A DNA stretch of 64,000 bases, from the NCBI GenBank assembly GCA_963666345.1, contig OY762721.1:1024001-1088000 (forward strand), written 5' to 3'. A model generated the notes under the pieces. That model saw nothing but the letters and a program-made list of their open reading frames with translations, had not been told where the DNA came from and searched no databases. The translations under genes were made by a program, and so were the position numbers. Positions 8,346-55,251 of the stretch are shown one piece after another. Each line of letters starts with the position of its first letter. Position 1 is the stretch's first letter. This DNA comes from Desulfatiglandales bacterium (GTDB lineage: Bacteria > Desulfobacterota > DSM-4660 > Desulfatiglandales > Desulfatiglandaceae).

Positions 8346-9638
8346 CTATTCCTGCATATTCTTGATTATATCCAAATCACCTTCCCAGGCGGATTCAAGA
8401 ATCGGCCGCATGTAGGTATCGACCATCTTCGCGTTCAGGGGAACGGGCATGTTCCTCAACTTCATGTCAAGCTGGGGATTTTTAGCGGCTGCGAGGCATC
8501 TTTCCATATGCCCCGAAGTCACGCCCGGGACCTCCCTTAGGCATGTCGGAAACCCCAGGAATCTGCTGAAATCAACCATCCCCCTGGCAACTGCCATACC
8601 AAGATCCCTTCCGCTCAGTGAATCGACCTTCTCATCCAGATAGCCGTAGCGTTTATAGATGTTACCGATCGTCCTTAACTGATCCTCTATGGCTGGGGCA
8701 AAAAATACGGTATAGTAGGGATTCATAAGGGCACATGCGCGGCCGTGGCTTAAGACATCGACGAGAGAGAAACTGGTCAGATGTGCGCCTGAGGTTCCTC
8801 CCACCATTATGGCGTATCCGCCCAGGTCGGTTCCAAGTCCAAGAAAGGTCCTGGCTTCCATGCTATTGGGGTCTTTCTTCATCTCGGTTAGACCTTTTAT
8901 TATAAGCTCAATGCCCACGGTTGCTATCTCCTTTGTCCTTTCCCGGCTTTCCGGTCCTGATCCGAAATAGACTTCCAGGCAATGGGCGATCCCGTCGAGC
9001 CCCCCGTCAAGGGTAAGACTCATCGGCTGAGTCGCAGTCACGTCATAGTCGAATATCGCGCGGGGAGGGATAACGGCCTCATCCACAATCAATTTTTTCT
9101 GACCCTGAACCGGGTCGGTTATATTCGAATATTTTGTAAGGTGGGCGCCGGAGCTCGATGCCATCATGACGGCAAGTACAGGTATAACGGTTCGTTCGGC
9201 CTTTTCGCATATCTTTGAGACCTGTCCTACCCCGAAAAAAGGATCTATTTCAGGTTCCATATCACCAAGGGTAGCCAAAGTCGCCGCCGCCTTCACGGAA
9301 TCGATCCCTGAACCACCGTCGGCTACAACAATGAAATCTGGCCTTTTGTGCATGATGTGACTGTGGATACGGTAAACATCCACAAAAGGGGCGTTCGGCG
9401 CCGCAGACCTTGCGATACCCACGACATTAACCCCTGCATCTTCAATAGAGTTAATGATCCTGAGCTGGAGCGGCTTGAACCACTCCAATTCGATGGGGCC
9501 TACAAACAAGGCCTTTTTACCCAGCTGGGAAGAGAATCTGCCGGCGGCCTCATCCAGTACACCGCTTCCGAAAGAGTAATTGTCGCCCTTAAATTCTCTG
9601 AGCATTGAAGCGGCACGATTCTTAAGATCTTTCATCAC
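8346..9638 (-). CDS. Iron-containing (class III) alcohol dehydrogenase
   Basis: GGSGIDSVKA, DGIAHCLE, AH..S and SHGRACA metal-binding pattern. Confidence 0.9.
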   Translation of the reverse strand: MMKDLKNRAASMLREFKGDNYSFGSGVLDEAAGRFSSQLGKKALFVGPIELEWFKPLQLRIINSIEDAGVNVVGIARSAAPNAPFVDVYRIHSHIMHKRPDFIVVADGGSGIDSVKAAATLATLGDMEPEIDPFFGVGQVSKICEKAERTVIPVLAVMMASSSGAHLTKYSNITDPVQGQKKLIVDEAVIPPRAIFDYDVTATQPMSLTLDGGLDGIAHCLEVYFGSGPESRERTKEIATVGIELIIKGLTEMKKDPNSMEARTFLGLGTDLGGYAIMVGGTSGAHLTSFSLVDVLSHGRACALMNPYYTVFFAPAIEDQLRTIGNIYKRYGYLDEKVDSLSGRDLGMAVARGMVDFSRFLGFPTCLREVPGVTSGHMERCLAAAKNPQLDMKLRNMPVPLNAKMVDTYMRPILESAWEGDLDIIKNMQE

Positions 9639-9772
9639 CTGACTCCTCTCACAAAATATTTCATTCGCCTTCGCCCGAATACCCTGCAGCTTGATTTCAT
9701 TCTATTTATTCGGATTCCACTGAAAGATCAACCTGACCGTAGATTTGAATATTCTATTTATGAATATAGAAT

Positions 9773-9807
9773 AAAGGCCTGTCCCTTCTGAAAGGACAGA
9801 CCTTTAT
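9773..9807. terminator. Hairpin terminator after glcF-like gene
   Basis: Stem-loop taaaggcctgtcc-cttctgaaa-ggacagaccttta. Confidence 0.55.
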
Positions 9808-9841
9808 AGCTTATGTTTGTTTCATTTTTTTCGCAGGAATG

Positions 9842-10987
9842 TTATTCCATTGATTCAACGACTATTTCAGTCAGATCCTTTACCGCAAGGTCGGTATTGG
9901 TCCTTTTGGCCCTTGTCTGCATCGTCCTTACACACTGCTGACACGCCGTGATAACGGTCTGGGCGCCGACCCCCTTGATGCTGTCAAGCTTCATCTGGGC
10001 GACCTGGGCCGAGATCTCCGGCGCGGTCATCTCCACATTTCCACCGCCGCCGCAGCAGACCGAAAGATTCCGGTTAAGGGGAAGTTCGGTGAAATCGATC
10101 CCGGGCACAGCCTTGATTACCTCGCGGGGTTCCTCAAAAACGCCGCTGTTCCGCCCCAGGTCACATGGGTCATGATATGTGACCTTTCCTTCGATCGGCT
10201 TTGTAAGCTTGATGCGGCCTTCCTTTATCAGTTCCGCAATAACCTGACTGGCATGCATAAGCTCGACATCGGTATTATAGAGATGTTTCCATGTGTGGTA
10301 GCAGGACGGGCATGTAAACACCACCTTTTTGGCGCCCACATCGGCGACCTTTTTCAGGTTGTGCTCTTTCATGGCCTCCAGTTTGTCAGGCATGCCCGCT
10401 CCGATCAGGGGAAACCCGCAGCACCATTCGTCTCCGCCCAGGATGGTGAAGTTCACGCCTGCCTTGGTGAGGATCTTGGCCATATTGGCGGGTATCTTCT
10501 GGACCATCGGGAAAAATGACGCGACACACCCGACAAAGAAAACTATATCGGCCTTTTCTTTTTCAAAGCTCTCTTCCGGCAGATCCTTTATCAGTTCCTG
10601 CCATTCAGCCCTGTCTTCCTGATCGTCGTCGGAGATATTGTGAGTTCCTTCAAGGGTCTTGACCAGCCTGTCGGCGATCTTGGGATAAAAACCCTCATCC
10701 ACCTGGCATTCCCGGTTCTGAAAAATGAGGTCCTTGGTCTGTACGCTTGAAAGGCACACTGCCGTACAGGCACCGCACCCCAGACAAGTGAATATGGCCC
10801 TTTCGGTATCATCGCTCAAGGGCAGTTTGTTTTCGATGGCGAATCGTACTATGGCATTTCGCCCCCTGGAAGAATAGGCTTCTTCTTTCATCACCAGATA
10901 GGTGGGGCAGCTCGGCAAGCAGAATCCGCATTTATTGCACTTTGCAACCTCGTCATATGACAACTTCTTTAATTGAACAAGATTCAT
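9842..10987 (-). CDS. glcF: GlcF-like Fe-S subunit (2x4Fe-4S + two CCG domains)
   Basis: CNKCGFCLPSCP, CLGCGACTAVC, two CCG motifs, YHDPC; adjacent to glcD/glcE-like genes. Confidence 0.8.
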   Translation of the reverse strand: MNLVQLKKLSYDEVAKCNKCGFCLPSCPTYLVMKEEAYSSRGRNAIVRFAIENKLPLSDDTERAIFTCLGCGACTAVCLSSVQTKDLIFQNRECQVDEGFYPKIADRLVKTLEGTHNISDDDQEDRAEWQELIKDLPEESFEKEKADIVFFVGCVASFFPMVQKIPANMAKILTKAGVNFTILGGDEWCCGFPLIGAGMPDKLEAMKEHNLKKVADVGAKKVVFTCPSCYHTWKHLYNTDVELMHASQVIAELIKEGRIKLTKPIEGKVTYHDPCDLGRNSGVFEEPREVIKAVPGIDFTELPLNRNLSVCCGGGGNVEMTAPEISAQVAQMKLDSIKGVGAQTVITACQQCVRTMQTRAKRTNTDLAVKDLTEIVVESME

Positions 10988-11030
10988 AAGAGTTTACCTC
11001 TTCGCGTCTACTCTGATTATGGATAATTGA

Positions 11031-12476
11031 TTAAAGACCTCCGATATAGCGCCCCTTGGACATGATACCCGCAGGATCGATCTCCTCCTTGATCCTCTTC
11101 ATGGCAACAAAATCGGAACCCGGTTTCCCCCACACCTTGAGTTTGTTTTTCAGCTCAACCGGTGCGTTTTGAACTACCATATTGCCTTCAACGCTGAGAC
11201 ATTTTTCAAGGAGTTGATCAAGGGCCTTGACGCCCTTTTCAACGGCATCTGAATCGTCTTTTGCAAGGAGAAGGTTGATATGGGAAATCCCGTTACCGGA
11301 ATGGGCCTGAACGGAAAACTCAAGTCCACTCTTGTCTAAGGTATCCTTTGCAAATTCCAGGAGCCCCTTCCACTCGGATATGGGATAGTTGTATTTAACC
11401 CCGATAAGCCCGGGGGATTTTGTCTTAAGCGTAGAATTGATATCGCTTACCTTCAACCAGAAAACCCTGTGGTCATCCTCTGAAAAGACTGCGTCATCGT
11501 CCGAACCAATGGCCTTTCCCATCTCCAGGATCTCTTTTTTCATTCGCTCCACCGCAGGGGTGAAGGCCTCAAAGGCTGCGGCAAGCAGACATCCGCCTTT
11601 TGCCACCTTAGGCACATCCTGCATGCCCAGAGCTTCGCAAGCCGTATCGTTCATCACCTCGACTGCAGCCGGAAGCAGTGTGGTTTCAAATATCTTTTCC
11701 GCACATGCCGCCGCATCTGCAAAAGATCCGAAGGATATTGCCACTGTTTCCATCTTCTCCGGAAGAGGAAGCAGGCGCAGGGTTATCTCGGTTATAACGC
11801 CCAGGGAGCCGAAGCTACCCAGCATCAGCTTGGAGATGTCGTAGCCTGATACGTTTTTGACCGTCTTTCCCCCGCTTCCGATTATATCGCCCTGGGGAGT
11901 TACAAAACGCACCCCAAGAATCTGATCCCTGGGCAGGTTGTAAAGCAGCCTCCTGGGGCCTGTCGAATTGGCAGCGATAATTCCGCCGATGGTCGCCTTC
12001 TCCGCATAGAGAGGGTCGATCGGAAGAAAACAACCGCTGTGTGACCTGTCCGAACAGATGAACTCATCGGCCTCGGTTTCCAGGTCCTCAATTGGAAGGT
12101 AGCATCTGTCTTCCTGGGTGCCGAGCCGGGCCTGGATGTCCCGGAATTTTACTCCGGCCTCAACGGTTATCGTCAGATTTGCCACATCCACATCCAGCAT
12201 ATGGTTCATACGCTTGGTGCACAGCACCAGGTCAAGATTCTTCGGCGGATTTCCCATGCCCATCTTTGTACCGCTTCCCCATACGACCATGGAGATATCG
12301 TTTTTATGGGCACAGCGCATCACCTCGGAAACCTCTTTAGTGTTTGCGGGAAATACCACTGCCCTGGGAGTCAAATCATCAACAGAATATTTGGCAACGG
12401 CATCCGGTTCTGATTTTATTTGCTCCCGGCCTATTATGCCGGAGAGCTCGTTAATAATCTCTGTGAAGTTTGCCAC
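11031..12476 (-). CDS. glcE: GlcE-like FAD-binding oxidoreductase subunit
   Basis: ATIGGIIAAN..GPRRL.Y and GGKTVKNVSGYD motifs. Likely GTG start at 12476 behind aaggag (ORF track gives 12500). Confidence 0.8.
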   Translation of the reverse strand: MANFTEIINELSGIIGREQIKSEPDAVAKYSVDDLTPRAVVFPANTKEVSEVMRCAHKNDISMVVWGSGTKMGMGNPPKNLDLVLCTKRMNHMLDVDVANLTITVEAGVKFRDIQARLGTQEDRCYLPIEDLETEADEFICSDRSHSGCFLPIDPLYAEKATIGGIIAANSTGPRRLLYNLPRDQILGVRFVTPQGDIIGSGGKTVKNVSGYDISKLMLGSFGSLGVITEITLRLLPLPEKMETVAISFGSFADAAACAEKIFETTLLPAAVEVMNDTACEALGMQDVPKVAKGGCLLAAAFEAFTPAVERMKKEILEMGKAIGSDDDAVFSEDDHRVFWLKVSDINSTLKTKSPGLIGVKYNYPISEWKGLLEFAKDTLDKSGLEFSVQAHSGNGISHINLLLAKDDSDAVEKGVKALDQLLEKCLSVEGNMVVQNAPVELKNKLKVWGKPGSDFVAMKRIKEEIDPAGIMSKGRYIGGL

Positions 12477-12534
12477 GTGAAAACTCCTTGGTTTCGGCAT
12501 TAATTGAATAGCCGTTTAAAGTGTTCTTATACAA

Positions 12535-13929
12535 TTATGCCCCCTGGCATGGTTGATCCGGAATCATCTTACCGGGGTTGATAAAATCATCAGGATCAAA
12601 GGCATTTTTGATTCTACGCTCGAATTCAAGATCGGTATTTGAAAAAATGAAGCATGTCTCACCGAGCTTTTCCAGACCCACGCCATGTTCGCCGCTGATA
12701 GTTCCCCCTGCGTCCGCACAGAGCTTAAGGATTTCCGTAGATGCCTTGCGAACCCGTCTCAACTCATCCTCATCCCTTTCATCAAACATTATGAGGGGAT
12801 GCAGGTTACCGTCACCTGCGTGGAAGACGTTTCCTATCGGCAGGTCATACTTTTCCCCTATCCCGATAACGCCGCTGAGCACCTCGGGTAATTTTGTTCT
12901 CGGGACCGTGCCGTCACAGCAAAGGTAGCTGGGACGGACCTGACCTACCGCGCCGAAAGCGCCCTTTCTGCCGGCCCAGAGGATCGCCCTTTCCGCTTCA
13001 TCCTTTGCGAGCTTGACCTCACGGACATTGTTCTTTTTGCAGACCTCCATTACCTTGGCCGCGTTCTCATCCATACCTTCCGGCATTCCGTCAAGTTCGA
13101 TAATCAGCACGGCCGCTGCGTCCAGGGGATAACCTACCTTGACGGTTTCCTCAACGGCACGCATCACCGTGTTATCCATCATCTCCAGTGTCGCTGGTAC
13201 TATACCTTCGCTGATTACGGCTGAAACGGTGTTTGCACCGTCTTCAATAGTCTCGTATATGCAGAGCATGGTCTTTACGGCCTCAGGCACCTTCTCCAGC
13301 TTGAGGATCATCTTTGTCACGAGTCCCAAAGTACCCTCACTGCCCACGATTATTCCGGTGAGATCATATCCCGCGTTGTCCCTCGCCTTGCCGCCCGTCT
13401 GGATAACTGTGCCGTCATTCAGCACTACTTCCAGACCCTGAATATGATTTGTAGTAGTCCCGTATTTTAGACAGTGAGGACCTCCGGAGTTCTCGCCCAC
13501 ATTACCGCCGAGTGTTGAAACCTTCTGACTGGCCGGGTCCGGCTGATAGACATAACCCAGCTTGAGCATCTCATTTTGAAGATCCAGGGTGATGATGCCC
13601 GGCTGCACAGTTACGGTACGGTTTTTTAGATCTACATCCAGGATATTGTTCATCCGGGAAAAATGCACGACGATTCCCCCCTCAATGGGTATCGTACCGC
13701 CTGTAAGGTTCGTTCCGGAACCCCTTCCCAGGATGGGAACCTTTTCCTTGTATGCCAGCGCCATGATCTTTGAGACTTCCTCGGTTGAATTGGGCAGTAC
13801 CACGACATCGGGCATACCCTTATCAAGAGAAGCATCATAGCTGTAAAGCATACGGTCCATCTCCGAAGTCAATACGAACTCGGGATCGACTATTTCCTTC
13901 AGGCTCTCAATAAGCTTTTCTATTTCCAT
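12535..13929 (-). CDS. glcD: Glycolate oxidase/dehydrogenase FAD-linked subunit GlcD
   Basis: PDPAS..STLGGN..ENSGGPHCLKYG.T.NH, GSEGTLG, HAGDGNLH and GEHGVG motifs. Confidence 0.88.
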   Translation of the reverse strand: MEIEKLIESLKEIVDPEFVLTSEMDRMLYSYDASLDKGMPDVVVLPNSTEEVSKIMALAYKEKVPILGRGSGTNLTGGTIPIEGGIVVHFSRMNNILDVDLKNRTVTVQPGIITLDLQNEMLKLGYVYQPDPASQKVSTLGGNVGENSGGPHCLKYGTTTNHIQGLEVVLNDGTVIQTGGKARDNAGYDLTGIIVGSEGTLGLVTKMILKLEKVPEAVKTMLCIYETIEDGANTVSAVISEGIVPATLEMMDNTVMRAVEETVKVGYPLDAAAVLIIELDGMPEGMDENAAKVMEVCKKNNVREVKLAKDEAERAILWAGRKGAFGAVGQVRPSYLCCDGTVPRTKLPEVLSGVIGIGEKYDLPIGNVFHAGDGNLHPLIMFDERDEDELRRVRKASTEILKLCADAGGTISGEHGVGLEKLGETCFIFSNTDLEFERRIKNAFDPDDFINPGKMIPDQPCQGA

Positions 13930-14051
13930 AAATCAATCCTCTTCAGAATAGAGTAAAAGGAGGCACCGGAATTTTCGGATTCCTGCGCCTCCTCAAGAAG
14001 TTCATTTACCCCTTTGAATCACAAAGGGTTTTTTTCATCTAAAGTATCTGC

Positions 14052-14951
14052 CTATTTTCCGATCTTGGCCTCGGCAGCCTTGATTTCTTCCATGGTCCTG
14101 AGGATCTGCAGTGCATTTTCATACACGGGTGTGTCAACCATTTTGCCCTTATAGGCCACGGCTGCGGCACCCTTTGCAATGCCTTCTTCCTCAAATACCT
14201 TCTTTACGCCCTCAGCCCATTCCACATCGTCTGGTGAAGGTGTGTAAAGTTCGTGTGAAGGCTCGATCTGACCCGGGTGGATAAGCATGCGGCCTTCATA
14301 ACCCATCTGGCAGCCGTCATTGGTGCTCTTGATAAAGGCGTCCTTGTCGGTGAAATTGACAAAGGGACAGTCTATTGCGACGCATCCCGCGGCACGCGCA
14401 GCAACGGGCACGCGATAGCGGCCGTAGAGCTGCTCTACCGCTTCGTCGGTCAGGGTTACGCGCATGTCCTTGCAGTAATCAACGGCGCCGAAGATAAGGG
14501 AGTTACAGCGCGGGCTTGCGCTTGCACACTCGTAGGCGTGAACCATACCCAGGGCGGTTTCGATGAGCATCTGGATCTTCACCGTACCCACTTTCATCCC
14601 CCTTCTCTGCTCCAGTTCTTCCAGTTTCCAGTCCAGACGCTGCACATGCTCGGGCAGACCTGTCTTGGCAAGGCATACGCCGTCCAGTCCGGGATATACT
14701 ATCGCCTCGAGGTCGTCGTTGGTCATAAGGGTTTCCCAGTTGTTGATCCTTACATAAAGATTGGGAGCCGCCTGGTCCGCCCTGCTGGTCTTGAGGTATT
14801 CCCGGATCATCTCCCTGCCTTTGGCTTTTTCAGCGGGGGGAACCGAGTCTTCAAGGTCGAGAGTCAAAACATCACAGGCGATGCTCGGCGCCTTGCCGAC
14901 CATCTTCTCATTGTTGCTTGGTACGTAAAAAACGGATCTCATAACAGTCAT
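14052..14951 (-). CDS. CitE/HpcH-family acyl-CoA lyase (candidate malyl-CoA lyase)
   Basis: RS.FYVP, DLEDSV, VRIN, IETA.G, FGAVD, IHPGQI and GKMVD.P motifs. Confidence 0.88.
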   Translation of the reverse strand: MTVMRSVFYVPSNNEKMVGKAPSIACDVLTLDLEDSVPPAEKAKGREMIREYLKTSRADQAAPNLYVRINNWETLMTNDDLEAIVYPGLDGVCLAKTGLPEHVQRLDWKLEELEQRRGMKVGTVKIQMLIETALGMVHAYECASASPRCNSLIFGAVDYCKDMRVTLTDEAVEQLYGRYRVPVAARAAGCVAIDCPFVNFTDKDAFIKSTNDGCQMGYEGRMLIHPGQIEPSHELYTPSPDDVEWAEGVKKVFEEEGIAKGAAAVAYKGKMVDTPVYENALQILRTMEEIKAAEAKIGK

Positions 14952-14963
14952 GGTAAATCCTCC

Positions 14964-15860: not shown

Positions 15861-15871
15861 ATTATCCCCCG

Positions 15872-16156: not shown

Positions 16157-16170
16157 AAGAATCCTCCCCT

Positions 16171-17427: not shown

Positions 17428-17482
17428 TTTGCCTCCCTTAACTAAAATAATCGTGTTATTTGTTTACCATTGAAGATGTTTC

Positions 17483-46136: not shown

Positions 46137-46218
46137 ACAATTTTCCTCCTAAATTAACCTGAAATATACAGGGTAATATTCCCCGTGATAAAAGGACATC
46201 CCTATCGGCTCAGGGACA

Positions 46219-47289: not shown

Positions 47290-47354
47290 TTTCTATTTCC
47301 TTTCGACTCTGCACGATAACCGAATTAACGGATTTTTACAAATTCCAACTCAAA

Positions 47355-48686: not shown

Positions 48687-49189
48687 AAGTCAGTTCCTTT
48701 TATCACGAAGTGTACATCTCTTATCCATTTGGCCAGACCCTGAATGGCAAGAAGAATAAAACTCAGGGCTATCACTATTTTCAGGGGATAGAGCGGCGGC
48801 GCCCACATGCTGAAGGTGCGCTCCAGGATACCGACTGAATAGACGGCCTTTTTGATTGAGTACCAGACCATAACGCCCGTGAAGCTGAAAAAGATCGTGG
48901 AAAAGAAAAAGATGTCAAAGATAGCCTGCCATTTGCGGGAGAGATGTCCATAAATGAGATCGGTGCGGACATGTTTGTCGTCCTTTAGGACCCATGCCCC
49001 GCCCATCACGAACATACCGCCGGCAGTAAGGGCGGCCAGTTCCCAGGACCATTCGGTGGGAGAATTAAAGACATACCGCCTGAGGACTTCCACCGCTTCA
49101 AGCAGCGTCACCGGCAGTAACAGATAGCTGAAGACTTTTCCGGAAAACTCGCTCAGCCAGTCTGCAAAACTCACATATTTTTTAAGCAT
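48683..49189 (-). CDS. dctQ: TRAP transporter small permease
   Basis: EVLRRYVFNSPT.W and HVRTD motifs; start uncertain. Confidence 0.88.
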   Translation of the reverse strand: MLKKYVSFADWLSEFSGKVFSYLLLPVTLLEAVEVLRRYVFNSPTEWSWELAALTAGGMFVMGGAWVLKDDKHVRTDLIYGHLSRKWQAIFDIFFFSTIFFSFTGVMVWYSIKKAVYSVGILERTFSMWAPPLYPLKIVIALSFILLAIQGLAKWIRDVHFVIKGTDL

Positions 49190-49280
49190 GCCAGACCCAT
49201 GGCCTCCATTTTTTGATTCAAGCCGGGGCCGCTGAGATACCAAGATCCCGCGGCCCCGGGTTTAATGTCTTAAAAGATAA

Positions 49281-50375
49281 TTATTGTCTGCTTCCCGGCT
49301 CAAAACCCATCTGTTCCTCAGGTTCCAGCTTCTGTCCCCACCATGCGCTTATCGATTTGTAGGGATACCATATTTCCATAAAGTCATAGATCGATTCATA
49401 TGCCTCTTTTGTAAGGCCTTTGTATTTCTTGATATCCTTCTGTTCGATCTCGAACATCTGCTTTCTCAGCGGAACAAACTGTTTTTCGTCCATCCTCATG
49501 AAGTCCATTTTGCCTTTTTTCTTGAGCTCCTTCATGGCAACCGCACTCGTCCACTGGCTCTTTGTCCAGTGGTTGAATTCATCCGACCTGAAGGCCATCT
49601 GAACAATGAGTTTCAGATCTTCAGGAAGCTTTTTCCAGTAATCTTTGTTGATCACGACAGTCGTAACAAAATGCACATTCCAGAAGTCGGGCCATATACC
49701 ATATTTGGCGACATCTGTAAGCCCGAGTCCCTCATTGTATTTCAGGTGCCCGAATTCGGCCATATCCACTGTGCCGGTGGCAAGCCCTGTAAACACCTCT
49801 TCAAGCGGCAGGGTGATACCTGCAACATTGTTCTTTGCAAGCAGGCGGGGATCGGACGTCCTCATCTTTCTTCCCTTCATCTCCTCAATGCTCTTAAAGG
49901 GCTTGTTCGCCATAAGGACCTCTGTTCCCCAGATTTCAACAGCCAGAAGCTTCAGGTTAAGCTTGTCAAATGCCTTCTGAAGGATATCCCAGCCACCGAA
50001 TTCATACATCCATACGTATCTGTCGTGGACATCCATCTGCAGATTCCCTGAAGAACAGGGAAGAAAGGCATATTCCACTCCTCTGGCATATACAGGCCAG
50101 CTTGAATGCATCTCGAATACGCCCTCGCCGCATGCCTGAAATGCCTCAAGACTTGAAACGATCGTGCCGTTCGGAACCACATTGATCTTGAGCCTGCCGT
50201 TTGTGGCCTTAAAAATCTTCTCCGCCGTCTTTTGATTCTGGATAAAATCAGTATGCGCAGGACTGTGGATCACCTGCATCTTCCATTCAAACTCAGGTTT
50301 GTCCGCAGCAATGACATTTGCCGCAAAAAAAACACTCATCAAAACCGCAACCGATAAAACACCTATTTTTCTCAT
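49281..50375 (-). CDS. dctP: TRAP transporter substrate-binding protein
   Basis: RBS aaggaggt before MRKIG...; signal peptide; WKMQ, TNGRL, KG.KMR and EVFTGLATGTVD motifs. Confidence 0.9.
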   Translation of the reverse strand: MRKIGVLSVAVLMSVFFAANVIAADKPEFEWKMQVIHSPAHTDFIQNQKTAEKIFKATNGRLKINVVPNGTIVSSLEAFQACGEGVFEMHSSWPVYARGVEYAFLPCSSGNLQMDVHDRYVWMYEFGGWDILQKAFDKLNLKLLAVEIWGTEVLMANKPFKSIEEMKGRKMRTSDPRLLAKNNVAGITLPLEEVFTGLATGTVDMAEFGHLKYNEGLGLTDVAKYGIWPDFWNVHFVTTVVINKDYWKKLPEDLKLIVQMAFRSDEFNHWTKSQWTSAVAMKELKKKGKMDFMRMDEKQFVPLRKQMFEIEQKDIKKYKGLTKEAYESIYDFMEIWYPYKSISAWWGQKLEPEEQMGFEPGSRQ

Positions 50376-50498
50376 CCTTCCTACCTCCTTTAATGGATTA
50401 TTTTTTTGCCATTCACCTGCTGAATACAAAGAGGATAGCTGCGAACCTATTTCCAATACATGAATTCGCCTTACAGTGATTAAACGGATAAAGATATT

Positions 50499-50513
50499 GC
50501 AATACAGGTGCCG
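50499..50513 (-). promoter_or_regulatory. Sigma-54 promoter of the TRAP/URO-D/corrinoid operon
   Basis: CGGCACCTGTATTGC (GG-N10-GC); IHF-like site at 50542-50554. Confidence 0.7.
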
Positions 50514-50630
50514 CATTACCTGCGAGCATGCACAAAATCCTTAACTTATTGATATAATGGTGATTAGGTATTAGATAAAATCGAATCGACAAATTCTGAA
50601 GACAAATAACTGGGGATTAAAAAGGCAATG

Positions 50631-50677
50631 TGCACCTAACGGTTCACCTGTCAGTGCATATTGCACCAATAGGTTCA
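50631..50677. promoter_or_regulatory. Tandem enhancer (UAS) for an NtrC-family activator
   Basis: TGCACC-N4-GGTTCA at 50631 and 50662, 31 bp apart. Confidence 0.7.
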
Positions 50678-50965
50678 CTTCAAGCCCTCTATAATACTTC
50701 CATTACAGGAAGGGCCTCTGTTGCCGTAACTGGTTACTATTTTGGGATTATCTTACGATTATTTGAAGTTCATCAGGGAAAACAGATGGATCACCTTCAA
50801 CTGAGCAGTTGCAAACCATGAGGGTATTAAAACCCACACTGTGGCAACCCAGTGATTACTTGGATGACAGGCCAGGTTTCATAATGATTACAGTTATTGA
50901 CAATCCGGGAATATCAATCGGTCCGGACCAAGGATCCCAGTGAAAGCCTGGCCAGGCAAAGAACC

Positions 50966-52420
50966 TTAACCGGATATCCTCTTAAGCTTTCCCTGAAGTA
51001 TCCTCCTTGAAATGCCCAGGAACCTGGCCGTCGCGGTCTGATTTCCCTGATTCTTCTTGAGCGCCCTTTTTATTATCTCCTGCTCAAGGAGATCAAGATC
51101 CACTCCCTTGTCCGGGAGTTCAAAATTATCCCGCCCCAGCACAGGTACGCGTGAATAAGAAAAGTCAGGCTGGGAATCAAGGTCACTGACAAAATATAGA
51201 TCATCCGCCTCAACCGTAGCGTCTGTTTTCATTATTGCGAGCCTTTCCATGGCGTTTTTGAGCTGTCTGACATTGCCGGGCCATGAGAATCCGTTCAAAA
51301 AGGTCTCTGCCTCCGGTTTAAACCTTGTGAATCTCTTTCCCTTTCTGGAAAAGGCCCTGCTTATGAACCGTTGAGCAAGGGGAAGGATGTCATCAACCCT
51401 CTCCCTTAAAGGAGGGATATGTATGCTGCCCATGTTTATCCGGTAAAACAGATCAAGTCTGAAGTTCTTACTCGATACCGCCTGCTGAAGATTTTTGTTG
51501 GTGGCGCAGATGATCCTGATATCGACAGGCCTTTCCTCAACACTTCCAAGACGCTGCACCTTTTTATCCTCAATGACTCGAAGCAGTTTTACCTGCAGGT
51601 TCAAGGGCATTTCTCCTATTTCATCAAAGAAGATCGTCCCGCCGCTTGCCGCCTCCAGCTTACCCATTTTCCCCGATCTGGTCGCCCCTGTATATGCGCC
51701 CGGTTCATGTCCAAAAAGCTCTCCTTCTATCAATTCATGGGAAAGTGCCCCGCAGTTTATGGCGATAAAAGGCGTTGTGGTGCTCCCATGGCCGAAGTAA
51801 TGGATATACTGGGCAATCAACTCTTTTCCCGTGCCGCTCTCCCCTTCAATGAGTACCGGTACAGACCTGTCTGAGCTGTATTTTTCAGCCTGATCGATCA
51901 CATCGCGCATGCGTTCGGAATACACAAGGAGCCCGTCGAGCCCTATTTCTTCCAGATAGGAGGCACGAATCCGTGCCGTCTCTCCCCTAACAATACTTTT
52001 TTCTATTTCAATACGCTCGGTAAACTCGCTTTTCAGGGAAAGGTAGTTTCTCCTCAAGGCGGCGTATTCGGCCGAGCGTTCGATGGTTATGGCCAGCTCC
52101 CGGACATTTATTGGTTTGATCAGATAATCAAAGGCCCCGTATTTCAGGGCCTTTATGGCATTGTCCATATCTCCGTGACCGGTTACGACAATCACGTCGA
52201 CAGGTGACTGTTCCACCACCTTGACACGTCTCAGAAGCTCAAGCCCATCCATTTCCGGCATTCGGATATCGGTAATTATGAGATTGAAATCACCGGAATG
52301 GAATGCCTGCAGGCCCTTGCTGCCGTTAAATGCGCAGGTGACATTATGCCCCAGCTTGCCAAGGAAACCGGCAAGGCTCTTGCAGGCATCTCGTTCATCA
52401 TCTATAAGCAGTATCTCCAT
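50966..52420 (-). CDS. NtrC-family sigma-54-dependent response regulator
   Basis: Receiver domain, GESGTGKE, ELFGHEPGAYTGA (GAFTGA variant), WPGNVRQL and C-terminal HTH. Confidence 0.95.
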   Translation of the reverse strand: MEILLIDDERDACKSLAGFLGKLGHNVTCAFNGSKGLQAFHSGDFNLIITDIRMPEMDGLELLRRVKVVEQSPVDVIVVTGHGDMDNAIKALKYGAFDYLIKPINVRELAITIERSAEYAALRRNYLSLKSEFTERIEIEKSIVRGETARIRASYLEEIGLDGLLVYSERMRDVIDQAEKYSSDRSVPVLIEGESGTGKELIAQYIHYFGHGSTTTPFIAINCGALSHELIEGELFGHEPGAYTGATRSGKMGKLEAASGGTIFFDEIGEMPLNLQVKLLRVIEDKKVQRLGSVEERPVDIRIICATNKNLQQAVSSKNFRLDLFYRINMGSIHIPPLRERVDDILPLAQRFISRAFSRKGKRFTRFKPEAETFLNGFSWPGNVRQLKNAMERLAIMKTDATVEADDLYFVSDLDSQPDFSYSRVPVLGRDNFELPDKGVDLDLLEQEIIKRALKKNQGNQTATARFLGISRRILQGKLKRISG

Positions 52421-52617
52421 TTAAATGCCGCCTCTTCATTTAGTTGTCTTGAATTTGTGCCTGGAAATTTGATATCTGAATAATCTTTGGCATGTCAAGA
52501 TGTTTCGGCTTAAGATAGAATCGGTACGGGCATCAACAGACCATTTAACCGGTTTTAGGTTATTCCTAAACCGCTCCGCTGTTCAGTGAACAAAGACCTG
52601 AAAGGGGGACCCTTTTC

Positions 52618-55251
52618 ATGAGTATAAAAAAGAAACGATTCTGCATGGTATTCATACTGGCCTGTCTTTTTTTGACACCGGCATATTCCAATGCAGTGCA
52701 AAAAAGGAACGTCCTCGTGCTTAATTCCTATCATCCCGGTTTCTCCTGGACTGATAGTATACTTAAGGGGATAAGGTCAGTCCTTAAGCCAAAGAACGGC
52801 ATTGAACTTTTTGTGGAATATATGGACACAAAGAGACATGACACAGAAGATTATTTTCAAAGATTGAAAGCCCTATATGAAATCAAATATATGAAAAAGA
52901 AAATAGATGTCATATTGTCTTCGGACGACCATGCCCTTGATTTTCTGCTCAAATACCGTAATGAGCTTTTCCCTGGAGTGCCTGTGGTCTTTTGTGGAGT
53001 GGATCGTGTTGAACCTGAACGCATTGCTGGTCATGACCGCATCTTCGGTGTTGAAGAGGGTTTGGAATTTGAAAAAAATATCCGTATGGCCCTGCGCCTC
53101 CATCCTGAGGTTGAATCCATTGCAATTGTTGGAGATTTTACCAAATCATCACTTTCATATCTTGGAAAAATCAAAAAGATAGAGGCCAAACTCTCGGGCC
53201 AGGTCAGGTTCGATTATCTCACGAATTTGACAGTGAAGGAGCTTCAAAATGCCATAAAGCAACTACCCTATAATTCGTTTATAATGTATCTGATTTTAAC
53301 CCGAGACAGAAACGGCCTGGTCCTGTCTCTAGAGGAAGGCCTTTCGCTAATCGGAAAAAATTCTCACGTTCCTGTCTACATTGCTTGGGAAACCCCCCTT
53401 GGACCTAACGTAATGGGAGGTGATATTGCTAGCGCCTTCAAACAGGGCGCAACATCTGCCAGCCTTGTAAAAAGAATCCTGGCCGGAGAGCCCCTTGAAA
53501 GTCTCCCCAAACTTCAAGTAGGGCCCCATGTAAGGCTCTTCAACTACCCGGTCATGCGCCGGTATGGACTTAAAAAGACCGACCTTCCCAAGGACAGTAT
53601 TATTGTAAATGAGCCCTATTCCTTTTACAGGGAACACAGGACACTTGTCTGGAACGTTATGGCTGCCTTCATGGGGCTCGTATTGATAGTCGTACTCCTT
53701 TCGGTAAACATACTGAGCAGAAAAAGGGCTGAAAAAGAGCTCCTGGCAAGCGAGACACGTCTCAAGTCGCTCCTGGAAACCGCGAACGAAGGCTTCTGGG
53801 AAATAGACAACGATTCCAGGGTAGTCGATCTCAATCCTGAGATGTGCAAGATCGTGGGTAGAGACAGGCAGGAGATTGTGGGTCTCACCGCCTATAATTT
53901 CCTGGATGAACCCAATCAGGAAATCTTCCAAAAGGAGATGGCAATCAGAAAAAAGGGGATAAGGAGTTCCTATGAATTACAGTTTACGCATCCTGACGGG
54001 AAAAATATCCACTGTCTTGTAAACGCAAGCCCCCTTTTCGGTGAGTACCAGGGCAAGATCGGCTCCTTTGCCATGATAACCGACATATCTGAGAGAAAAC
54101 GGGTGGAGGAGCAGCTCATAACGAGCAAAAGGGTGCTTGCACAGTCGGAATCGATGTACAGGGCTATCTCCGAGTTTGCCGATTTCGGCATCATGCTTCT
54201 CGGGCAGAAGGAAATCATATACAGCAACCAGAGGTTGGCCTATTTCATGGATATAAAGGCCGGGTCTATTTCAAAATCCGATCTTTTCGCATGGATATGC
54301 GAGGAAGACCTGTCAGGTTTTAAACGCTCCCTTGGAAATCTTCTCAAGGGTGCATACGAAGGACCTGTCCGGTTTGAATTCCGGGGACAGAACAGCTCAG
54401 GCCTGAGGGATTATCTGGCTCACGCGCAGTTGATGGATTACAGCGAAAACACCGTGGTCCATATGTTCCTGGAAGATATTACGGAACAAAAAGAGATGAC
54501 CAGGAGGGCGAGACTTAACGAACTCAGGATGTATCATGAAGACAGGCTCTCAGCCCTTGGAGTCATGGCTACCGGCATCGCTCACGAACTAAACCAGCCC
54601 CTGAATACCATCAGGGTCCTGACGGAAGGCTTTTTGTTCGGCAGGGACGAGGGATGGGATCTTGATACACAGGAGGTGTTTGATCACCTCGAGATGATTT
54701 CCCGCCAGGTGGTTCGCATGAGCCAGATAATACAGAACATAAGAAACTTCGCCCGTGAGGATAGAGTTCGGGACGCAAATGAAATAGATCCGAACAAGGC
54801 CATAGAGGATGTATTTTCCATGCTCGGCACACAGCTTGAGGTTCACGGTATACGGGTGGAAAAATTCATTGAGGCCAAGGTGCCAAAAATCAGGGCAAAT
54901 TTGAATCGCCTTGAACAGGTCATCATGAATCTGCTTGTCAATGCCAGACAGGCACTGGATGGATGTGAAAAAGAGCGTAAGATTATATGGCTAAAAACAG
55001 GGGCGCGTTACGACCAGGTCTTTATCGAGGTAGGAGATAATGCCACCGGCATCCCTGAAAAAGAGATGTCCAAGATTTTTGACCCCTTTTATTCCACCAA
55101 AGAGGTAGGAAAAGGCACCGGACTGGGGCTTTCAATCAGCAAGACGATCGTATCCGAATTCAGGGGTCGTCTGGAGGCATACAACAACAAGGAAGGCGGC
55201 GCCACTTTTTTCATTACCGTGCCATGCAGCCATGAAACTCAGGAGGTATAA
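52618..55251 (+). CDS. Sensor histidine kinase (periplasmic ABC-substrate-binding-like domain, PAS domains)
   Basis: VLVLNSYH, EYMDTKR, TM segment, PAS domains, AHELNQPL, NLLVNA, DNATGI and GTGLGL motifs. Confidence 0.93.
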   Translation: MSIKKKRFCMVFILACLFLTPAYSNAVQKRNVLVLNSYHPGFSWTDSILKGIRSVLKPKNGIELFVEYMDTKRHDTEDYFQRLKALYEIKYMKKKIDVILSSDDHALDFLLKYRNELFPGVPVVFCGVDRVEPERIAGHDRIFGVEEGLEFEKNIRMALRLHPEVESIAIVGDFTKSSLSYLGKIKKIEAKLSGQVRFDYLTNLTVKELQNAIKQLPYNSFIMYLILTRDRNGLVLSLEEGLSLIGKNSHVPVYIAWETPLGPNVMGGDIASAFKQGATSASLVKRILAGEPLESLPKLQVGPHVRLFNYPVMRRYGLKKTDLPKDSIIVNEPYSFYREHRTLVWNVMAAFMGLVLIVVLLSVNILSRKRAEKELLASETRLKSLLETANEGFWEIDNDSRVVDLNPEMCKIVGRDRQEIVGLTAYNFLDEPNQEIFQKEMAIRKKGIRSSYELQFTHPDGKNIHCLVNASPLFGEYQGKIGSFAMITDISERKRVEEQLITSKRVLAQSESMYRAISEFADFGIMLLGQKEIIYSNQRLAYFMDIKAGSISKSDLFAWICEEDLSGFKRSLGNLLKGAYEGPVRFEFRGQNSSGLRDYLAHAQLMDYSENTVVHMFLEDITEQKEMTRRARLNELRMYHEDRLSALGVMATGIAHELNQPLNTIRVLTEGFLFGRDEGWDLDTQEVFDHLEMISRQVVRMSQIIQNIRNFAREDRVRDANEIDPNKAIEDVFSMLGTQLEVHGIRVEKFIEAKVPKIRANLNRLEQVIMNLLVNARQALDGCEKERKIIWLKTGARYDQVFIEVGDNATGIPEKEMSKIFDPFYSTKEVGKGTGLGLSISKTIVSEFRGRLEAYNNKEGGATFFITVPCSHETQEV

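Follow-up and report, generated by a model that had tools for sequence, protein, structure and literature searches.

Does the corrinoid methyltransferase island of a Desulfatiglandales bacterium form one pathway with the glycolate module beside it? In the 64,000-nucleotide stretch of DNA analysed here (the window), the island spans 31.2 kb (24054-55251), as delimited by Pfam and NCBIfam profile matches. It is abutted at 4498-23510 by genes for a GlcDEF-like dehydrogenase, malyl-CoA lyase, malate-CoA ligase, malate dehydrogenase and Na+-pumping oxaloacetate decarboxylase (Table 1). The preliminary description of this adjacency was borne out, and each element that it named is supported by Pfam and NCBIfam. 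The module is wider than its GlcDEF/malyl-CoA core and covers at least the interval given above. The genes do not all share one strand as had been stated, since GntR1, malate dehydrogenase and the kinase are encoded on the plus strand; the three TRAP importers reported are present in the island, but a fourth set lies at 58239-61373. On the observed gene content, conserved cassettes, boundaries and distribution, we favour, with somewhat better than even confidence, a division into three separable units with the reactions proposed below: the glycolate module (A), a rearranged and partly duplicated second cassette of type I (B-I, 24054-43836), and a complete type II corrinoid methyltransferase cassette under a two-component system and sigma54 (B-II, 44374-55251).

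Table 1 Positions of genes and control elements in the window.
Feature	Position	Strand	Basis or remark
TSR/HIBADH-like	4498-5388	-	Pfam, NCBIfam
SerA-like	5779-7371	+	Pfam, NCBIfam
303-aa ORF, no name	7422-8333	+	flank of glycolate module
Fe-ADH-like	8346-9638	-	Pfam, NCBIfam
GlcF-like (CCG + 4Fe-4S)	9842-10987	-	Pfam, NCBIfam
GlcE-like	11031-12500	-	Pfam, NCBIfam
GlcD	12535-13929	-	Pfam, NCBIfam
CitE/HpcH-type malyl-CoA lyase	14052-14951	-	Pfam, NCBIfam
SucD-like	14964-15860	-	Pfam, NCBIfam
SucC-like	16171-17427	-	Pfam, NCBIfam
Palindrome TGGTAATACCA	17484-17494	-	mtk operon control region
Sigma54-like TGGCATGCTACTTGCC	17674-17659	-	mtk operon control region
GntR1 (FCD type; LldR/PdhR/GlcC-like)	18069-18860	+	Pfam, NCBIfam
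Malate dehydrogenase	18977-19915	+	TIGR01763, 453 bits, cut-off 352
OadB	20291-21418	-	Pfam, NCBIfam
OadA with biotin domain	21422-23287	-	Pfam, NCBIfam
OadG-like small ORF	23290-23510	-	name read from its sequence
Two TGGTAAAACCA palindromes	23871 and 23742	-	module boundary
Sigma54-like promoter	23918-23903	-	belongs to oadG
Intrinsic terminator, 12-bp stem	23992-23961	-	after RACo gene
RACo-type reductive activase, three RACo/Fer2 domains	24054-25916	-	Pfam, NCBIfam
DUF1638	26045-26743	-	Pfam, NCBIfam
LarA-superfamily (nickel-pincer) isomerase, NCBIfam group 22	26775-28076	-	NF052515, 461 bits, cut-off 400
MeTr/AcsE-type methyl-corrinoid:THF methyltransferase	28139-28933	-	NF005719, 312 bits, cut-off 259
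MtaA-like URO-D protein, H-x-C ... C motif	28972-29982	-	match to 4ay7, E 1.4e-52
GntR2	30028-30771	-	Pfam, NCBIfam
TRAP importer 1, DctM	30824-32140	-	Pfam, NCBIfam
TRAP importer 1, DctQ	32137-32637	-	Pfam, NCBIfam
TRAP importer 1, DctP	32891-33922	-	Pfam, NCBIfam
Fusion1 (URO-D-like::B12)	34149-36116	-	Pfam, NCBIfam; probable start 36086
Corrinoid protein	36495-37136	-	Pfam, NCBIfam
MtaA-like gene fragment (5' end)	37714-37971	-	
MetH-activation-domain-like ORF	38062-38751	-	
Fusion2 (URO-D-like::B12)	38816-40753	-	Pfam, NCBIfam
TRAP importer 2, DctM	40848-42191	-	Pfam
TRAP importer 2, DctQ	42188-42712	-	Pfam
TRAP importer 2, DctP	42766-43836	-	Pfam
Corrinoid protein	44374-45015	-	Pfam, NCBIfam
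UROD_a	45033-46136	-	Pfam, NCBIfam
UROD_b	46219-47289	-	Pfam, NCBIfam
DctM3	47355-48686	-	Pfam
DctQ3	48683-49243	-	Pfam
DctP3	49281-50375	-	corrected start
Sigma54 promoter GGCAC-N5-TTGCA	50513-50498	-	upstream of dctP3
Two GTGAACC-N4-GGTGCA repeats	50631-50678	-	
NtrC-type sigma54 response regulator	50966-52420	-	Pfam
PAS histidine kinase	52618-55251	+	Pfam
Fourth TRAP, DctM	58239-59552	-	Pfam
Fourth TRAP, DctQ	59549-60100	-	Pfam
Fourth TRAP, DctP, TAT signal	60234-61373	-	Pfam
TGGTAAAACCA	61647	-	upstream of fourth TRAP set
Sigma54-like promoter	61882	-	fourth TRAP set

The GlcD, GlcE and GlcF-like proteins are predicted from sequence to form an FAD/Fe-S 2-hydroxy-acid (glycolate) dehydrogenase; their scores all lie under the cut-offs of the E. 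coli-type equivalogs. GlcDEF-like orthologs sit in a conserved block in five genomes, and module A is conserved as a block in G170, G011, G009, G071 and G072. The flank of TSR-like, SerA-like and Fe-ADH-like genes is kept with it in G071 and G072, in the same order and at 69-70% identity. The malyl-CoA lyase and ligase genes have close orthologs (74-88% identity) in eight other genomes of the class, and the SucCD-like pair is read from its operon as a putative malate-CoA ligase. The malyl-CoA route has been described for anaerobic glyoxylate and glycolate use in S. glycolicus and Moorella HUC22-1 (PMC8092247). GntR1 probably represses the module, and the fourth TRAP importer probably feeds it. 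Corrinoid-island proteins were absent from the nine module-A loci examined (0 of 50 window proteins matched).

The glycolate module and the island are set apart by a terminator, and each has promoters and operators of its own. The motif TGGTNNNACCA occurs five times against 0.87 expected: one site precedes mtkA, two precede oadG, one precedes dctP4, and one lies just within the 3' end of a radical-SAM ORF at 62046. It has no occurrence inside the island. The GTGAACC-N4-GGTGCA repeats are found upstream of dctP3 only.

The type I cassette is composed of DctPQM, a LarA-like isomerase, GntR, an MtaA-like protein, a URO-D::B12 fusion, a corrinoid protein and MeTr. In B-I, Fusion1 and Fusion2 share 643 of 645 residues and are contained in a 2,047-bp repeat (99.7% identical). 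The two corrinoid genes of the island have a 644-bp repeat (100% identical) in common. The RACo and DUF1638 genes both recur in cassettes elsewhere. The type II cassette contains a histidine kinase, a sigma54 regulator, DctPQM, a corrinoid protein and two URO-D paralogs that are 65% identical. The reading frame of DctP3 was over-called (to 50516), and a ribosome-binding site, ATG and signal peptide place its start at 50375. The N-terminus of the kinase weakly matches ABC_sub_bind. The kinase and regulator genes recur adjoining cassettes elsewhere, and the type II gene set is also present in L134, L135 and L141; in L135 the whole set, from kinase through RACo, adjoins CdhD and an AcsE-like gene. 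Genus g30 carries a LIV-type ABC importer in place of TRAP among its type II genes.

Cassette loci were surveyed around the fusion (19), in the genome_contigs set (39) and in metagenomes (77), and glycolate-module genes were near none of them (0/19, 0/39, 0/77). Both cassette types recur widely as self-contained units without the module. A close malyl-CoA lyase was found in none of the 22 fusion-holding genomes of the class, and a complete chromosome with a LarA-bearing cassette has no lyase match whatsoever. The expected synteny of the fusion, and with it the type I cassette, with glcDEF and the malyl-CoA genes was therefore contradicted. The claim of one complete pathway fails for type I and the whole island, and is possible for type II only.

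For UROD_a and UROD_b the same synteny has some support. Two g30 genomes, G101 and G104, have glcD-glcE-glcF (79%, 59% and 80% identity) directly adjoining the type II cassette, at a junction different from that of the window. They lie immediately upstream of the kinase gene (L133 in G104, L126/L127 in G101), followed by the kinase, regulator, MeTr, ABC importer, UROD_a, corrinoid protein and DUF1638 genes, with UROD_b in G101 only. No such neighbour is present in L135 and L141, long metagenome contigs with a complete type II set and 5-10 kb of flank, in which neither glcDEF nor the lyase was found. A close lyase is encoded in g14 (G071) and g30 (G101), so that two of the eight lyase holders also hold type II; by genus, the two co-occur in three of three. 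This co-occurrence, together with the g30 adjacency, makes A and B-II less independent than our preferred explanation states.

The strongest alternative is that A and B share only a rearrangement-prone stretch of the genome and that the g30 adjacency is chance too. Recent repeats and a gene fragment within the island agree with this, as do the cassettes without A in all three surveys and the A block without corrinoid genes in five genomes. In the sister genus g14, type II does not adjoin module A; it has the same hydrolase flank on one side, with a P-type ATPase and DnaJ on the other. However, the glcDEF adjacency in a second lineage, a test named beforehand, is improbable by chance, and type II and the lyase co-occur in every genus counted. 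We regard coincidence as possible but doubtful.

A narrower version of the original proposal is unlikely, in our estimate: DctPQM3, UROD_a, UROD_b, the corrinoid protein and MeTr would O-demethylate an alpha-methoxy acid such as methoxyacetate, the GlcDEF-like enzyme would oxidise glycolate or D-lactate, and glycolate would continue via malyl-CoA. It draws on the adjacency in the window and in G104 and G101, on the adjoining glcF being the sole match in G101 at E <= 1e-120, and on the close lyases of G071 and G101. As Schuppert and Schink reportedly found in 1990 (cited in PMC8048578), Acetobacterium ferments methoxyacetate to glycolate. Since g30 stands apart from g1 and g14 on the RpoB tree, the glcDEF-type II link would occur in two lineages, each with its own junction; given the weak backbone of the tree, it may nevertheless have arisen once. 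Further points against this route are the complete type II sets of L135 and L141 without glcDEF or lyase, and G071, where the cassette and module A are on different contigs and the next 16 kb after the module contain unrelated genes. The lyase was detected in one of four g30 genomes (the other three are 78-88% complete). glcF-like genes of at least 74% identity are present in 25 other genomes of the class, which makes this a common enzyme. In L133, glcF and the kinase gene are separated by a hairpin and a sigma70-like promoter, and the operators in the window are separate.

The DctP proteins and the LarA-like enzyme give clues to the substrate. Among solved structures, DctP1-3 are nearest to TTHA0766, TakP and 7ug8, which bind lactate or keto acids, with DctP1 closest to lactate-binding TTHA0766 (2zzv, E 5.7e-60). 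Equivalents of TakP Arg177 and Tyr100 are kept in all four DctPs, the Glu214 position is acidic, and in DctP2 the ligand-binding Tyr, Arg and Glu-Trp of TakP are retained. The LarA-like protein has a predicted LarA fold, its Foldseek matches through rank 18 are LarA-family entries only, and Lar_N occurs in 77-88% of members of the Atlas clusters that hold it. A point against is that, by sequence, group 22 matches none of the solved LarA structures. The LarA-like gene is present in 13 of 77 metagenome loci; DctM1 is present in 22, and in 9 of these the LarA-like gene comes after it. LarC and CdhD/ACS genes are present in the genome. Judged by sequence, these features point to small 2-oxygenated carboxylates, and indirectly support ones that are or yield 2-hydroxy acids. 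We put at nearly even chances a substrate class of small 2-oxygenated monocarboxylic acids bearing a transferable methyl group, either alpha-methoxy acids or 2-hydroxy acids with the methyl group at another position, in which the LarA-like enzyme would invert the resulting 2-hydroxy acid. Methoxyacetate itself is a guess. Against this class, the MtaA-like protein retains the His-x-Cys ... Cys pattern, which in MtaA binds zinc for thiol chemistry, so that S-methyl compounds would fit better. The LIV-type importer means that the binding-protein argument does not transfer to g30, and little is known, as far as we are aware, about where aliphatic alpha-methoxy acids come from in nature.

Ordinary aromatic O-demethylases, acting on methoxylated aromatic acids (vanillate or syringate, for example) or on aryl-lactates or aryl-pyruvates as in Acetobacterium and Desulfitobacterium, have the same architecture: a URO-D MT1, corrinoid protein, pterin MT2 and RACo constitute the O-demethylase plan. 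Several MT1 paralogs per cassette suit multi-methoxy compounds, and some TRAP and LIV-type importers transport aromatic acids. A LarA relative is reported to racemise phenyllactate and 3-(4-hydroxyphenyl)lactate (PMC11770544). However, the solved structures closest to the DctPs belong to proteins for lactate or small keto acids rather than aromatic acids. The comparison gave no sequence match to a solved O-demethylase MT1, its sole match being the chloromethane enzyme CdmB (E 8.6e-6), and ring-degradation genes are absent from the cassettes at the 19, 39 and 77 loci. An aromatic substrate appears improbable.

Less likely still is demethylation of marine methylated sulfur (DMSP to methylmercaptopropionate to mercaptopropionate, with the zinc-type MtaA-like enzyme performing the thioether step, cf. 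MtpA of Methanosarcina): the MtaA match with its H-x-C ... C motif, the chemically different MT1s per importer, which suit stepwise removal of unlike methyls, and the presence of this DNA in marine sediment metagenomes speak for it, but the cassettes lack thiol-handling genes, and neither DMSP nor methylmercaptopropionate carries a 2-oxygen function, which leaves the TakP-type cation site and the LarA-like gene unexplained. Marine sulfate reducers are known to demethylate DMSP; we know of no genes for it, and a literature search found no bacterial gene assignment.

We therefore return to the three separable units, for which we propose the following reactions and direction of methyl flow. In both cassettes, a small monocarboxylate would be imported by TRAP, and a URO-D-type methyltransferase would move the substrate methyl to Co(I) of a corrinoid protein or fused B12 domain. 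A MeTr-type enzyme would pass it to tetrahydrofolate for oxidation via the Wood-Ljungdahl route, and RACo would re-reduce oxidised corrinoid. In module A, the GlcDEF-like dehydrogenase would oxidise glycolate to glyoxylate anaerobically, the CitE-type lyase would condense glyoxylate with acetyl-CoA to malyl-CoA, and the SucCD-like ligase would yield malate and ATP; malate dehydrogenase and the Na+-pumping oxaloacetate decarboxylase would carry malate on to pyruvate. The glycolate module and the entire island would not form one obligate pathway; a link of glycolate metabolism to the type II cassette is possible, and B-II alone may feed module A.

The corrinoid methyltransferase island (24054-55251) adjoins a block of glycolate and glyoxylate genes (module A, 4498-23510). 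This arrangement and the gene inventory of the preliminary description are borne out by scans of window open reading frames (ORFs) against Pfam (50 ORFs) and NCBIfam (32 ORFs). The island is composed of two gene sets. The type I cassette (24054-43836) carries two copies of a URO-D-like::B12 fusion protein, hereafter the fusion, and the type II cassette (44374-55251) contains a kinase, a sigma54 regulator and two URO-D proteins, UROD_a and UROD_b. Four proteins of the window contain B12-binding_2 and B12-binding domains (PF02607 and PF02310) according to Pfam.

Genes of module A, the corrinoid island and the fourth TRAP importer, and palindromic operator sites (window positions)
Feature	Position	Strand	Family match or remark
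Fe-ADH-like gene	8346-9638		
GlcD, GlcE-like, GlcF-like	9842-13929		
CitE-type lyase	14052-14951		
SucCD-like ligase genes	14964-17427		
TGGTNNNACCA site	17484		mtkA
MDH and GntR1	18069-19915	+	
OadA, OadB, small OadG-like ORF	20291-23510		adjoining RACo on its downstream side
TGGTNNNACCA sites	23742, 23871		oadG
RACo-type activase	24054-25916	-	PF14574, PF17651, PF00111
DUF1638	26045-26743	-	
Nickel pincer cofactor-dependent isomerase, group 22 (LarA-like)	26775-28076	-	NF052515, 461 bits (cut-off 400)
MeTr/AcsE-type pterin methyltransferase (MT2)	28139-28933	-	NF005719, 312 bits (cut-off 259)
MtaA-like URO-D protein	28972-29982	-	PF01208, 224 bits
GntR2	30028-30771	-	resembles NanR, LldR, PdhR (NCBIfam)
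DctMQP1	30824-33922	-	
URO-D-like::B12 fusion, first copy	34149-36116	-	
Corrinoid protein, first	36495-37136	-	
MetH-activation-domain-like ORF	38062-38751	-	
URO-D-like::B12 fusion, second copy	38816-40753	-	
DctMQP2	40848-43836	-	
Corrinoid protein, second	44374-45015	-	
UROD_a	45033-46136	-	PF01208, 87.7 bits
UROD_b	46219-47289	-	PF01208, 83 bits
DctMQP3	47355-50516	-	as called
sigma54 response regulator	50966-52420	-	
PAS kinase	52618-55251	+	
Fourth TRAP set (DctPQM4)	58239-61373		Pfam
TGGTNNNACCA site	61647		dctP4
TGGTNNNACCA site	62046		just inside 3' end of radical-SAM ORF

The longest frame of DctP3, the binding protein of the third TRAP importer, crosses its own sigma54 promoter GGCAC-N5-TTGCA (50513-50498). 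The true start is the ATG at 50375, which is preceded by an AAGGAGG ribosome-binding site and opens a signal peptide. A small hydrophobic ORF upstream of oadA (23290-23510, minus strand), absent from the 100-residue ORF list, probably encodes OadG. In the kinase, the first 380 residues (52618-53760, plus strand) match ABC_sub_bind (PF04392) weakly, with an E-value of 2.7e-6, and may form a periplasmic sensor domain shaped as a binding protein. A second carboxyltransferase of the OadA/PycB 5S type (2082-3605, minus strand), which scores 647 bits to NF006761 and is without a biotin domain, is encoded near a TSR-like gene; a fragment of a homolog lies downstream of the CitE-type lyase gene (mcl) in genome G101 (L132).

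The two fusions are identical in 643 of 645 residues and belong to a 2,047-bp repeat of 99.7% identity (34057-36103 and 38724-40770). The corrinoid-protein genes form a 644-bp repeat of 100% identity (36495-37138 and 44374-45017). At 37714-37971 lie 86 codons from the 5' end of an MtaA-like gene, and their product is 83% identical to the protein encoded at 28972-29982. These near-identical repeats and the gene fragment show that the island has been rearranged recently. The window joins the type II set to a scrambled type I set.

The type I gene set recurs at 19 loci in 16 genomes, at 39 loci of a genome collection (the scan returned 66, and gene content was read in 39) and at 77 metagenome loci (around UROD relatives; 77 of 77 read). 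It is composed of DctPQM1, often a LarA-like isomerase and GntR2, an MtaA-like protein, UROD_b, a corrinoid protein, the fusion and MeTr, and DUF1638, RACo or a MetH-activation-like ORF is encoded in the neighborhood. The cassette holders of the genome collection are metagenome-assembled genomes (MAGs) of Desulfobacterales, Desulfarculaceae, Desulfobaccales, Syntrophaceae and marine Rhodospirillaceae. The fusion is present in 22 of the 208 other genomes of the class. Among 8,000 scored candidates, 718 are fusion homologs at E <= 0.001; the 120 listed are all at least 70% identical to the fusion, their sources name them just corrinoid proteins, and most of them carry PF01208, against which the N-terminal part of the window fusion scores 21.6 bits, below the cut-off of 23.9. 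Up to four tandem fusion paralogs, 61-65% identical to those of the window, surround one TRAP set at loci of Rhodospirillaceae MAGs (L077, L078), so the family has undergone expansion in marine Alphaproteobacteria too.

The type II set is complete and self-contained at loci L135 and L141, in the order kinase, sigma54 regulator, (MeTr), DctPQM3, UROD_b, UROD_a, corrinoid protein and RACo. At L135, it adjoins CdhD and AcsE-like genes. Among the genomes searched in a phylum sample of 401, there was no additional type II cassette. Contigs from four RNA libraries or runs of one marine-sediment study, compared with 44300-55300, cover pieces of the type II operon from the corrinoid-protein gene through dctP3 at 90-100% likeness, possibly through DNA carry-over; they leave 50539-50905 and most of the kinase gene uncovered, gaps that carry no weight. 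A gene for an ETF-QO-like Fe-S flavoprotein lies between the corrinoid-protein and RACo genes at two loci (L128, 2630-4333, in G071 of the sister genus; L141, 11842-13545, a metagenome contig), and its product could supply electrons for corrinoid reactivation.

Judged from sequence, the plan of the cassettes is that of corrinoid O-demethylases, and the fusion is like CmuA in layout only. Bacterial O-demethylase systems of this kind are Odm of Acetobacterium dehalogenans, Dhaf_4610-4612 of Desulfitobacterium hafniense and Mtv of Moorella. All four parts of the plan are shared: the MT1 is of URO-D type, the corrinoid protein has B12-binding_2 and B12-binding domains, the MT2 binds pterin and the activase is of RACo type. 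Unlike these systems, the window cassettes are wired to TRAP importers of the lactate/keto-acid type, and one MT1 is fused to a corrinoid domain. Two further differences are the LarA-like isomerase and GntR carried by about four in ten of the metagenome cassettes (9 of the 22 with DctM1), and the hosts, which are Desulfobacterota and marine Rhodospirillaceae MAGs rather than Firmicutes. A literature search found no report joining corrinoid, TRAP transporter, methyltransferase and demethylation.

CmuA and CmuB serve aerobic chloromethane use. The fusion shares with CmuA an N-terminal methyltransferase barrel and a C-terminal corrinoid domain in one chain, and it keeps the histidine of the DxHxxG motif (DLHDIG). 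Its N-terminal part has no NCBIfam match to MtaA/CmuA (TIGR01463) at 1e-5 and no match among PDB sequences at 0.01. UROD_b matches CdmB (9rui), a component of CdmBCA of Acetobacterium (PMC13222342), weakly in sequence (E = 8.6e-6). Since the importer suits carboxylates, a gaseous halomethane is an unlikely substrate.

The MtaA-like protein resembles MtaA (260 bits to NF040654; E = 1.4e-52 to 4ay7), which belongs with MtsA and MtpA to the methylcobamide:thiol methyltransferases of Methanosarcina (bioRxiv 10.1101/548461). Unlike MtaA, it scores below the equivalog cut-off of 400 bits and sits with a THF-linked MT2. Like MtaA, it keeps an H-x-C ... C motif, which in MtaA is the zinc site for thiol chemistry; the motif reads H-x-D in UROD_a, UROD_b and the fusion. 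The retained motif counts against a purely O-methyl reading. For DMSP or methylmercaptopropionate together with corrinoid, no bacterial gene assignment was found in the literature.

Across the 209 genomes of the class that were searched, eight besides that of the window encode the CitE-type lyase of module A, at 74-88% identity. The lyase, ligase, GlcDEF-like and GntR1 genes lie together in five of five surroundings (G170, G011, G009, G071 and G072). In G170 and G071, this block also includes MDH and oxaloacetate decarboxylase genes. G011 and G009 have no MDH and no OadB or biotin-containing OadA near the block. Nearby, G011 has just a homolog of the second carboxyltransferase (5S type), and the contig of G072 stops short of the MDH/Oad side. 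Fe-ADH-like and SerA-like genes are also kept in G071 and G072, and the TSR-like gene in G071. At the nine module A loci of the relatives, the corrinoid-island proteins have no match. Module A is an independent conserved block.

No enzyme of module A reaches its equivalog cut-off (GlcD, 517 bits versus 567.9; GlcE, 133 versus 284; GlcF, 92.7 versus 333; lyase, 71 versus 500 of NF041626; ligase beta subunit, 187 versus 604 of NF010647). The GlcDEF proteins have the appropriate domain plan, with FAD_binding_4 and FAD-oxidase_C twice, plus CCG/4Fe-4S, and the lyase and ligase match at family level only, as HpcH_HpaI and SucCD-like proteins. The predicted roles of the enzymes are read from the operon and from the published malyl-CoA route. 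This route for the anaerobic use of glyoxylate and glycolate is described for Syntrophobotulus glycolicus and Moorella sp. HUC22-1 in PMC8092247. Module A shares with it genes for a dehydrogenase of 2-hydroxy acids, a lyase for malyl-CoA and a malyl-CoA/malate-CoA ligase that yields ATP. It differs by the presence of MDH and a membrane Na+-oxaloacetate decarboxylase and by an attached GntR/sigma54 control region and TRAP importer. At the malate step, the published glycolate route reportedly uses malic enzyme. Here, MDH and the Na+-pumping decarboxylase would convert malate to pyruvate and save some energy. We found no gene-level literature on glycolate and malyl-CoA in sulfate reducers.

The preliminary description had proposed that the island and module A form one pathway, in which a small methoxy or other methylated acid is demethylated by the corrinoid enzymes and the product is oxidized through GlcDEF. 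This proposal is not supported for the island as a whole, as the cassettes recur without module A; for type II, where glcDEF adjoins the cassette in genus g30, it keeps a low probability. The 22 genomes with the fusion and the eight with a close lyase have no overlap, and the only CitE-like gene of the fusion holder G079 is 37% identical. The 19, 39 and 77 loci contain no match to GlcD, lyase, ligase, MDH or Oad. Their sole glycolate-type matches are GlcF-like, with 30% identity in L044 and 49% in L055/L060, which are a single contig. A close lyase is present in none of the four genomes reached through the loci, one of which is a complete 4.8-Mb chromosome with a LarA-bearing cassette (L086); two have CitE-like genes at 33-34% identity. 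Because the two gene sets do not co-occur, the type I part of the coupling fails.

The evidence for type II is divided: glcDEF adjoins the cassette in G101 and G104, and L135 and L141 have no such neighbor. Relatives of UROD_a and UROD_b are present in 18 other genomes of the class, among which G071 (genus g14) and G101 (g30) also belong to the eight close-lyase holders. In G104 (L133), the C-terminal end of glcD at the contig start, a glcE-like gene and a glcF-like gene (59% and 80% identical to those of the window, respectively) lie directly upstream of the type II cassette on the same strand. The G104 cassette is composed of the kinase, regulator, MeTr, a LIV-type ABC importer, UROD_a, the corrinoid protein and DUF1638. 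G101 (L126/L127) has the same layout with UROD_b present too, and its glcD is 79% identical over the last 136 residues. The glcF-like gene next to the G101 cassette is the only glcF match of that genome at E <= 1e-120. It matches in two frames (L127, 5124-6256; residues 1-46 and 51-381), owing to either a frameshift or an assembly error, and is intact in G104. Besides the LIV-type importer, G101 encodes a TAXI-type TRAP transporter (NMT1_3 binding protein and fused DctQM) right after DUF1638 (L126, 7988-11391).

Several features qualify the adjacency in g30. Between glcF and the kinase gene, L133 has a hairpin and a strong sigma70-like promoter, and glcF-like genes of at least 74% identity are present in 25 other genomes of the class. 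The mcl-mtk genes of G101 are on another short contig and are followed by a formyltransferase-like gene, not glcD. A close lyase was found in one of the four g30 genomes, the other three being 78-88% complete. The G071 cassette is flanked by the same hydrolase as that of the window on one side and by ETF-QO-like, RACo, P-type ATPase and DnaJ genes on the other; module A of G071 is on another contig, with 16 kb of unrelated genes after it. In an RpoB tree of 41 genomes with a weak backbone, g1, the genus of the window, is sister to g14 (support 98), and g30 is placed elsewhere with g39 (support 97). The junctions differ, with OadA beside RACo in the window and GlcF beside the kinase gene in g30. 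The linkage in the window and that in g30 could conceivably have a single origin. We consider it doubtful that the type II cassette is coupled to glycolate oxidation.

Regulatory signals in the window separate module A from the island. A terminator with a 12-bp stem follows the RACo gene (23992-23961), and oadG (23918-23903), mtkA (17674) and dctP4 (61882) have sigma54-like promoters of their own. The PdhR/LldR-type palindrome TGGTNNNACCA occurs at five sites versus 0.87 expected, and none is within 24054-55251. Two GTGAACC-N4-GGTGCA repeats are present only upstream of the dctP3 promoter (50631-50678), consistent with the sigma54 regulator encoded next door acting on no operon but type II. 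Because of the terminator, separate promoters and separate operators, we regard the gene sets as separate units in the window. In a scan ahead of the type I operons, no sigma54 promoter reached a score of 8. Among the cassette loci of relatives, TGGTNNNACCA recurs only upstream of mtkA in G101, and the repeats upstream of dctP3 are absent. An 18-base repeat upstream of oadG has elsewhere only a three-mismatch look-alike at 40779, which was not counted.

We infer that GntR1 represses module A and the fourth TRAP importer; such shared control would mean that this importer brings in the substrate of module A itself. An insertion of the island that split module A from the importer was considered and rejected, as in G071 and G072 the DctPQM4 block, which has a MeTr gene next to it, and module A are on separate contigs.

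The binding proteins DctP1-3 are nearest to the lactate-binding TTHA0766 (2zzv), with E-values of 5.7e-60, 1.5e-44 and 1.5e-23, respectively. Further near matches are TakP (2hzk), the "ketoacid-binding protein" 7ug8, 5cm6 and 4pet; the structures 5cm6 and 4pet reportedly hold pyruvate. The ligands of TakP are Arg177, Tyr100, Gln156, Glu214/Trp215 and Glu240, according to PMC1839085, and their positions were carried over to the DctP proteins by sequence alignment. In DctP2, Tyr101, Arg179 and Glu216/Trp217 are retained, and residues 158 and 242 are Glu and Gln, respectively. The tyrosine and arginine (Y101 and R179 of DctP2) are invariant in four of four DctP proteins, and the Glu214 position is E or D in all four. 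The carboxylate-binding Arg and Tyr and the acidic cation ligand are shared with both TakP (2hzk/2hzl) and TTHA0766 (2zzv), at E-values of 1e-23 to 6e-60. The kept residues suggest that the cargo is a carboxylate, probably held through a cation. Unlike in TakP, the positions of F40, V97 and T153 are W, W and R in the DctP2 pocket, and that of Glu240 is Gln in DctP2 and DctP4 and different in DctP1 and DctP3. For the ABC binding protein of g30, the PDB offers only weak, uninformative LivJ-type matches.

The LarA-like gene, a regular component of type I, is present in 13 of the 77 metagenome loci, directly after DctM1 in 9 of the 22 that hold DctM1, and at L059 and L086 of the genome collection. 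The AF2 model of the protein has a pLDDT of 81.7, and all its Foldseek matches listed, to rank 18, belong to the LarA family (E = 1.4e-10 to 1.2e-8; TM 0.40-0.59). The Atlas places it among Lar_N clusters, and the genome encodes LarC (PF01969, 459 bits). Comparison with PDB sequences by phmmer and a 12-row profile retrieved no LarA chain. "Group 22" is unmentioned in the main texts of the LarA and nickel literature searched, the supplements of which may define groups. Two more group-22 paralogs are encoded in the genome (G000:C1:1815504-1816655 and 3915917-3917074; L056, L057). The L057 paralog lies beside genes for dehydratases of the AcnX and altronate/galactarate types, for an aldehyde dehydrogenase and for a HIBADH-like protein; this neighborhood hints at sugar acids or other hydroxy acids as possible substrates of group 22. 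Because of the DctP matches, the LarA-like gene and the likeness of GntR2 together, we favor a 2-hydroxy acid as product or substrate.

Family membership suggests the following reactions. The substrate would be taken up by TRAP, and a URO-D enzyme would move its methyl group to Co(I) of the corrinoid protein or of the fused B12 domain. MeTr would hand the methyl group to THF for oxidation via Wood-Ljungdahl enzymes, and the genome does encode CdhD/ACS. Oxidized cobalt would be repaired by RACo, and the 2-hydroxy-acid product would be inverted by the group 22 LarA-like enzyme. It is rather unlikely, in our estimate, that the cassettes represent the first genes for corrinoid-dependent removal of O-methyl groups from aliphatic or otherwise non-aromatic 2-alkoxy/2-hydroxy carboxylic acids, with type II converting methoxyacetate (or 2-methoxypropionate) to glycolate (or lactate) for GlcDEF and malyl-CoA, and type I, with its LarA-like racemase, acting on a chiral methoxy acid. 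In the literature searched, methoxyacetate and corrinoid are mentioned together only in work that does not deal with genes.

Methylated compounds are a main one-carbon route in anoxic sediments, and the known anaerobic demethylases act on aromatic ethers, methylamines, betaines, methanol and halomethanes. Cassettes of the types found here are common, and we found no characterized homolog of them. If the proposal is true, they would mark an unrecognized source of methyl groups and 2-hydroxy acids for sediment Desulfobacterota. Identification of the substrate would add a class of methyl donors not known before for bacteria of the sulfate-reducer type and would give a function to LarA group 22 and DUF1638. 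If the link to glcDEF holds, the long-missing genes for ether cleavage of the methoxyacetate type would be supplied.
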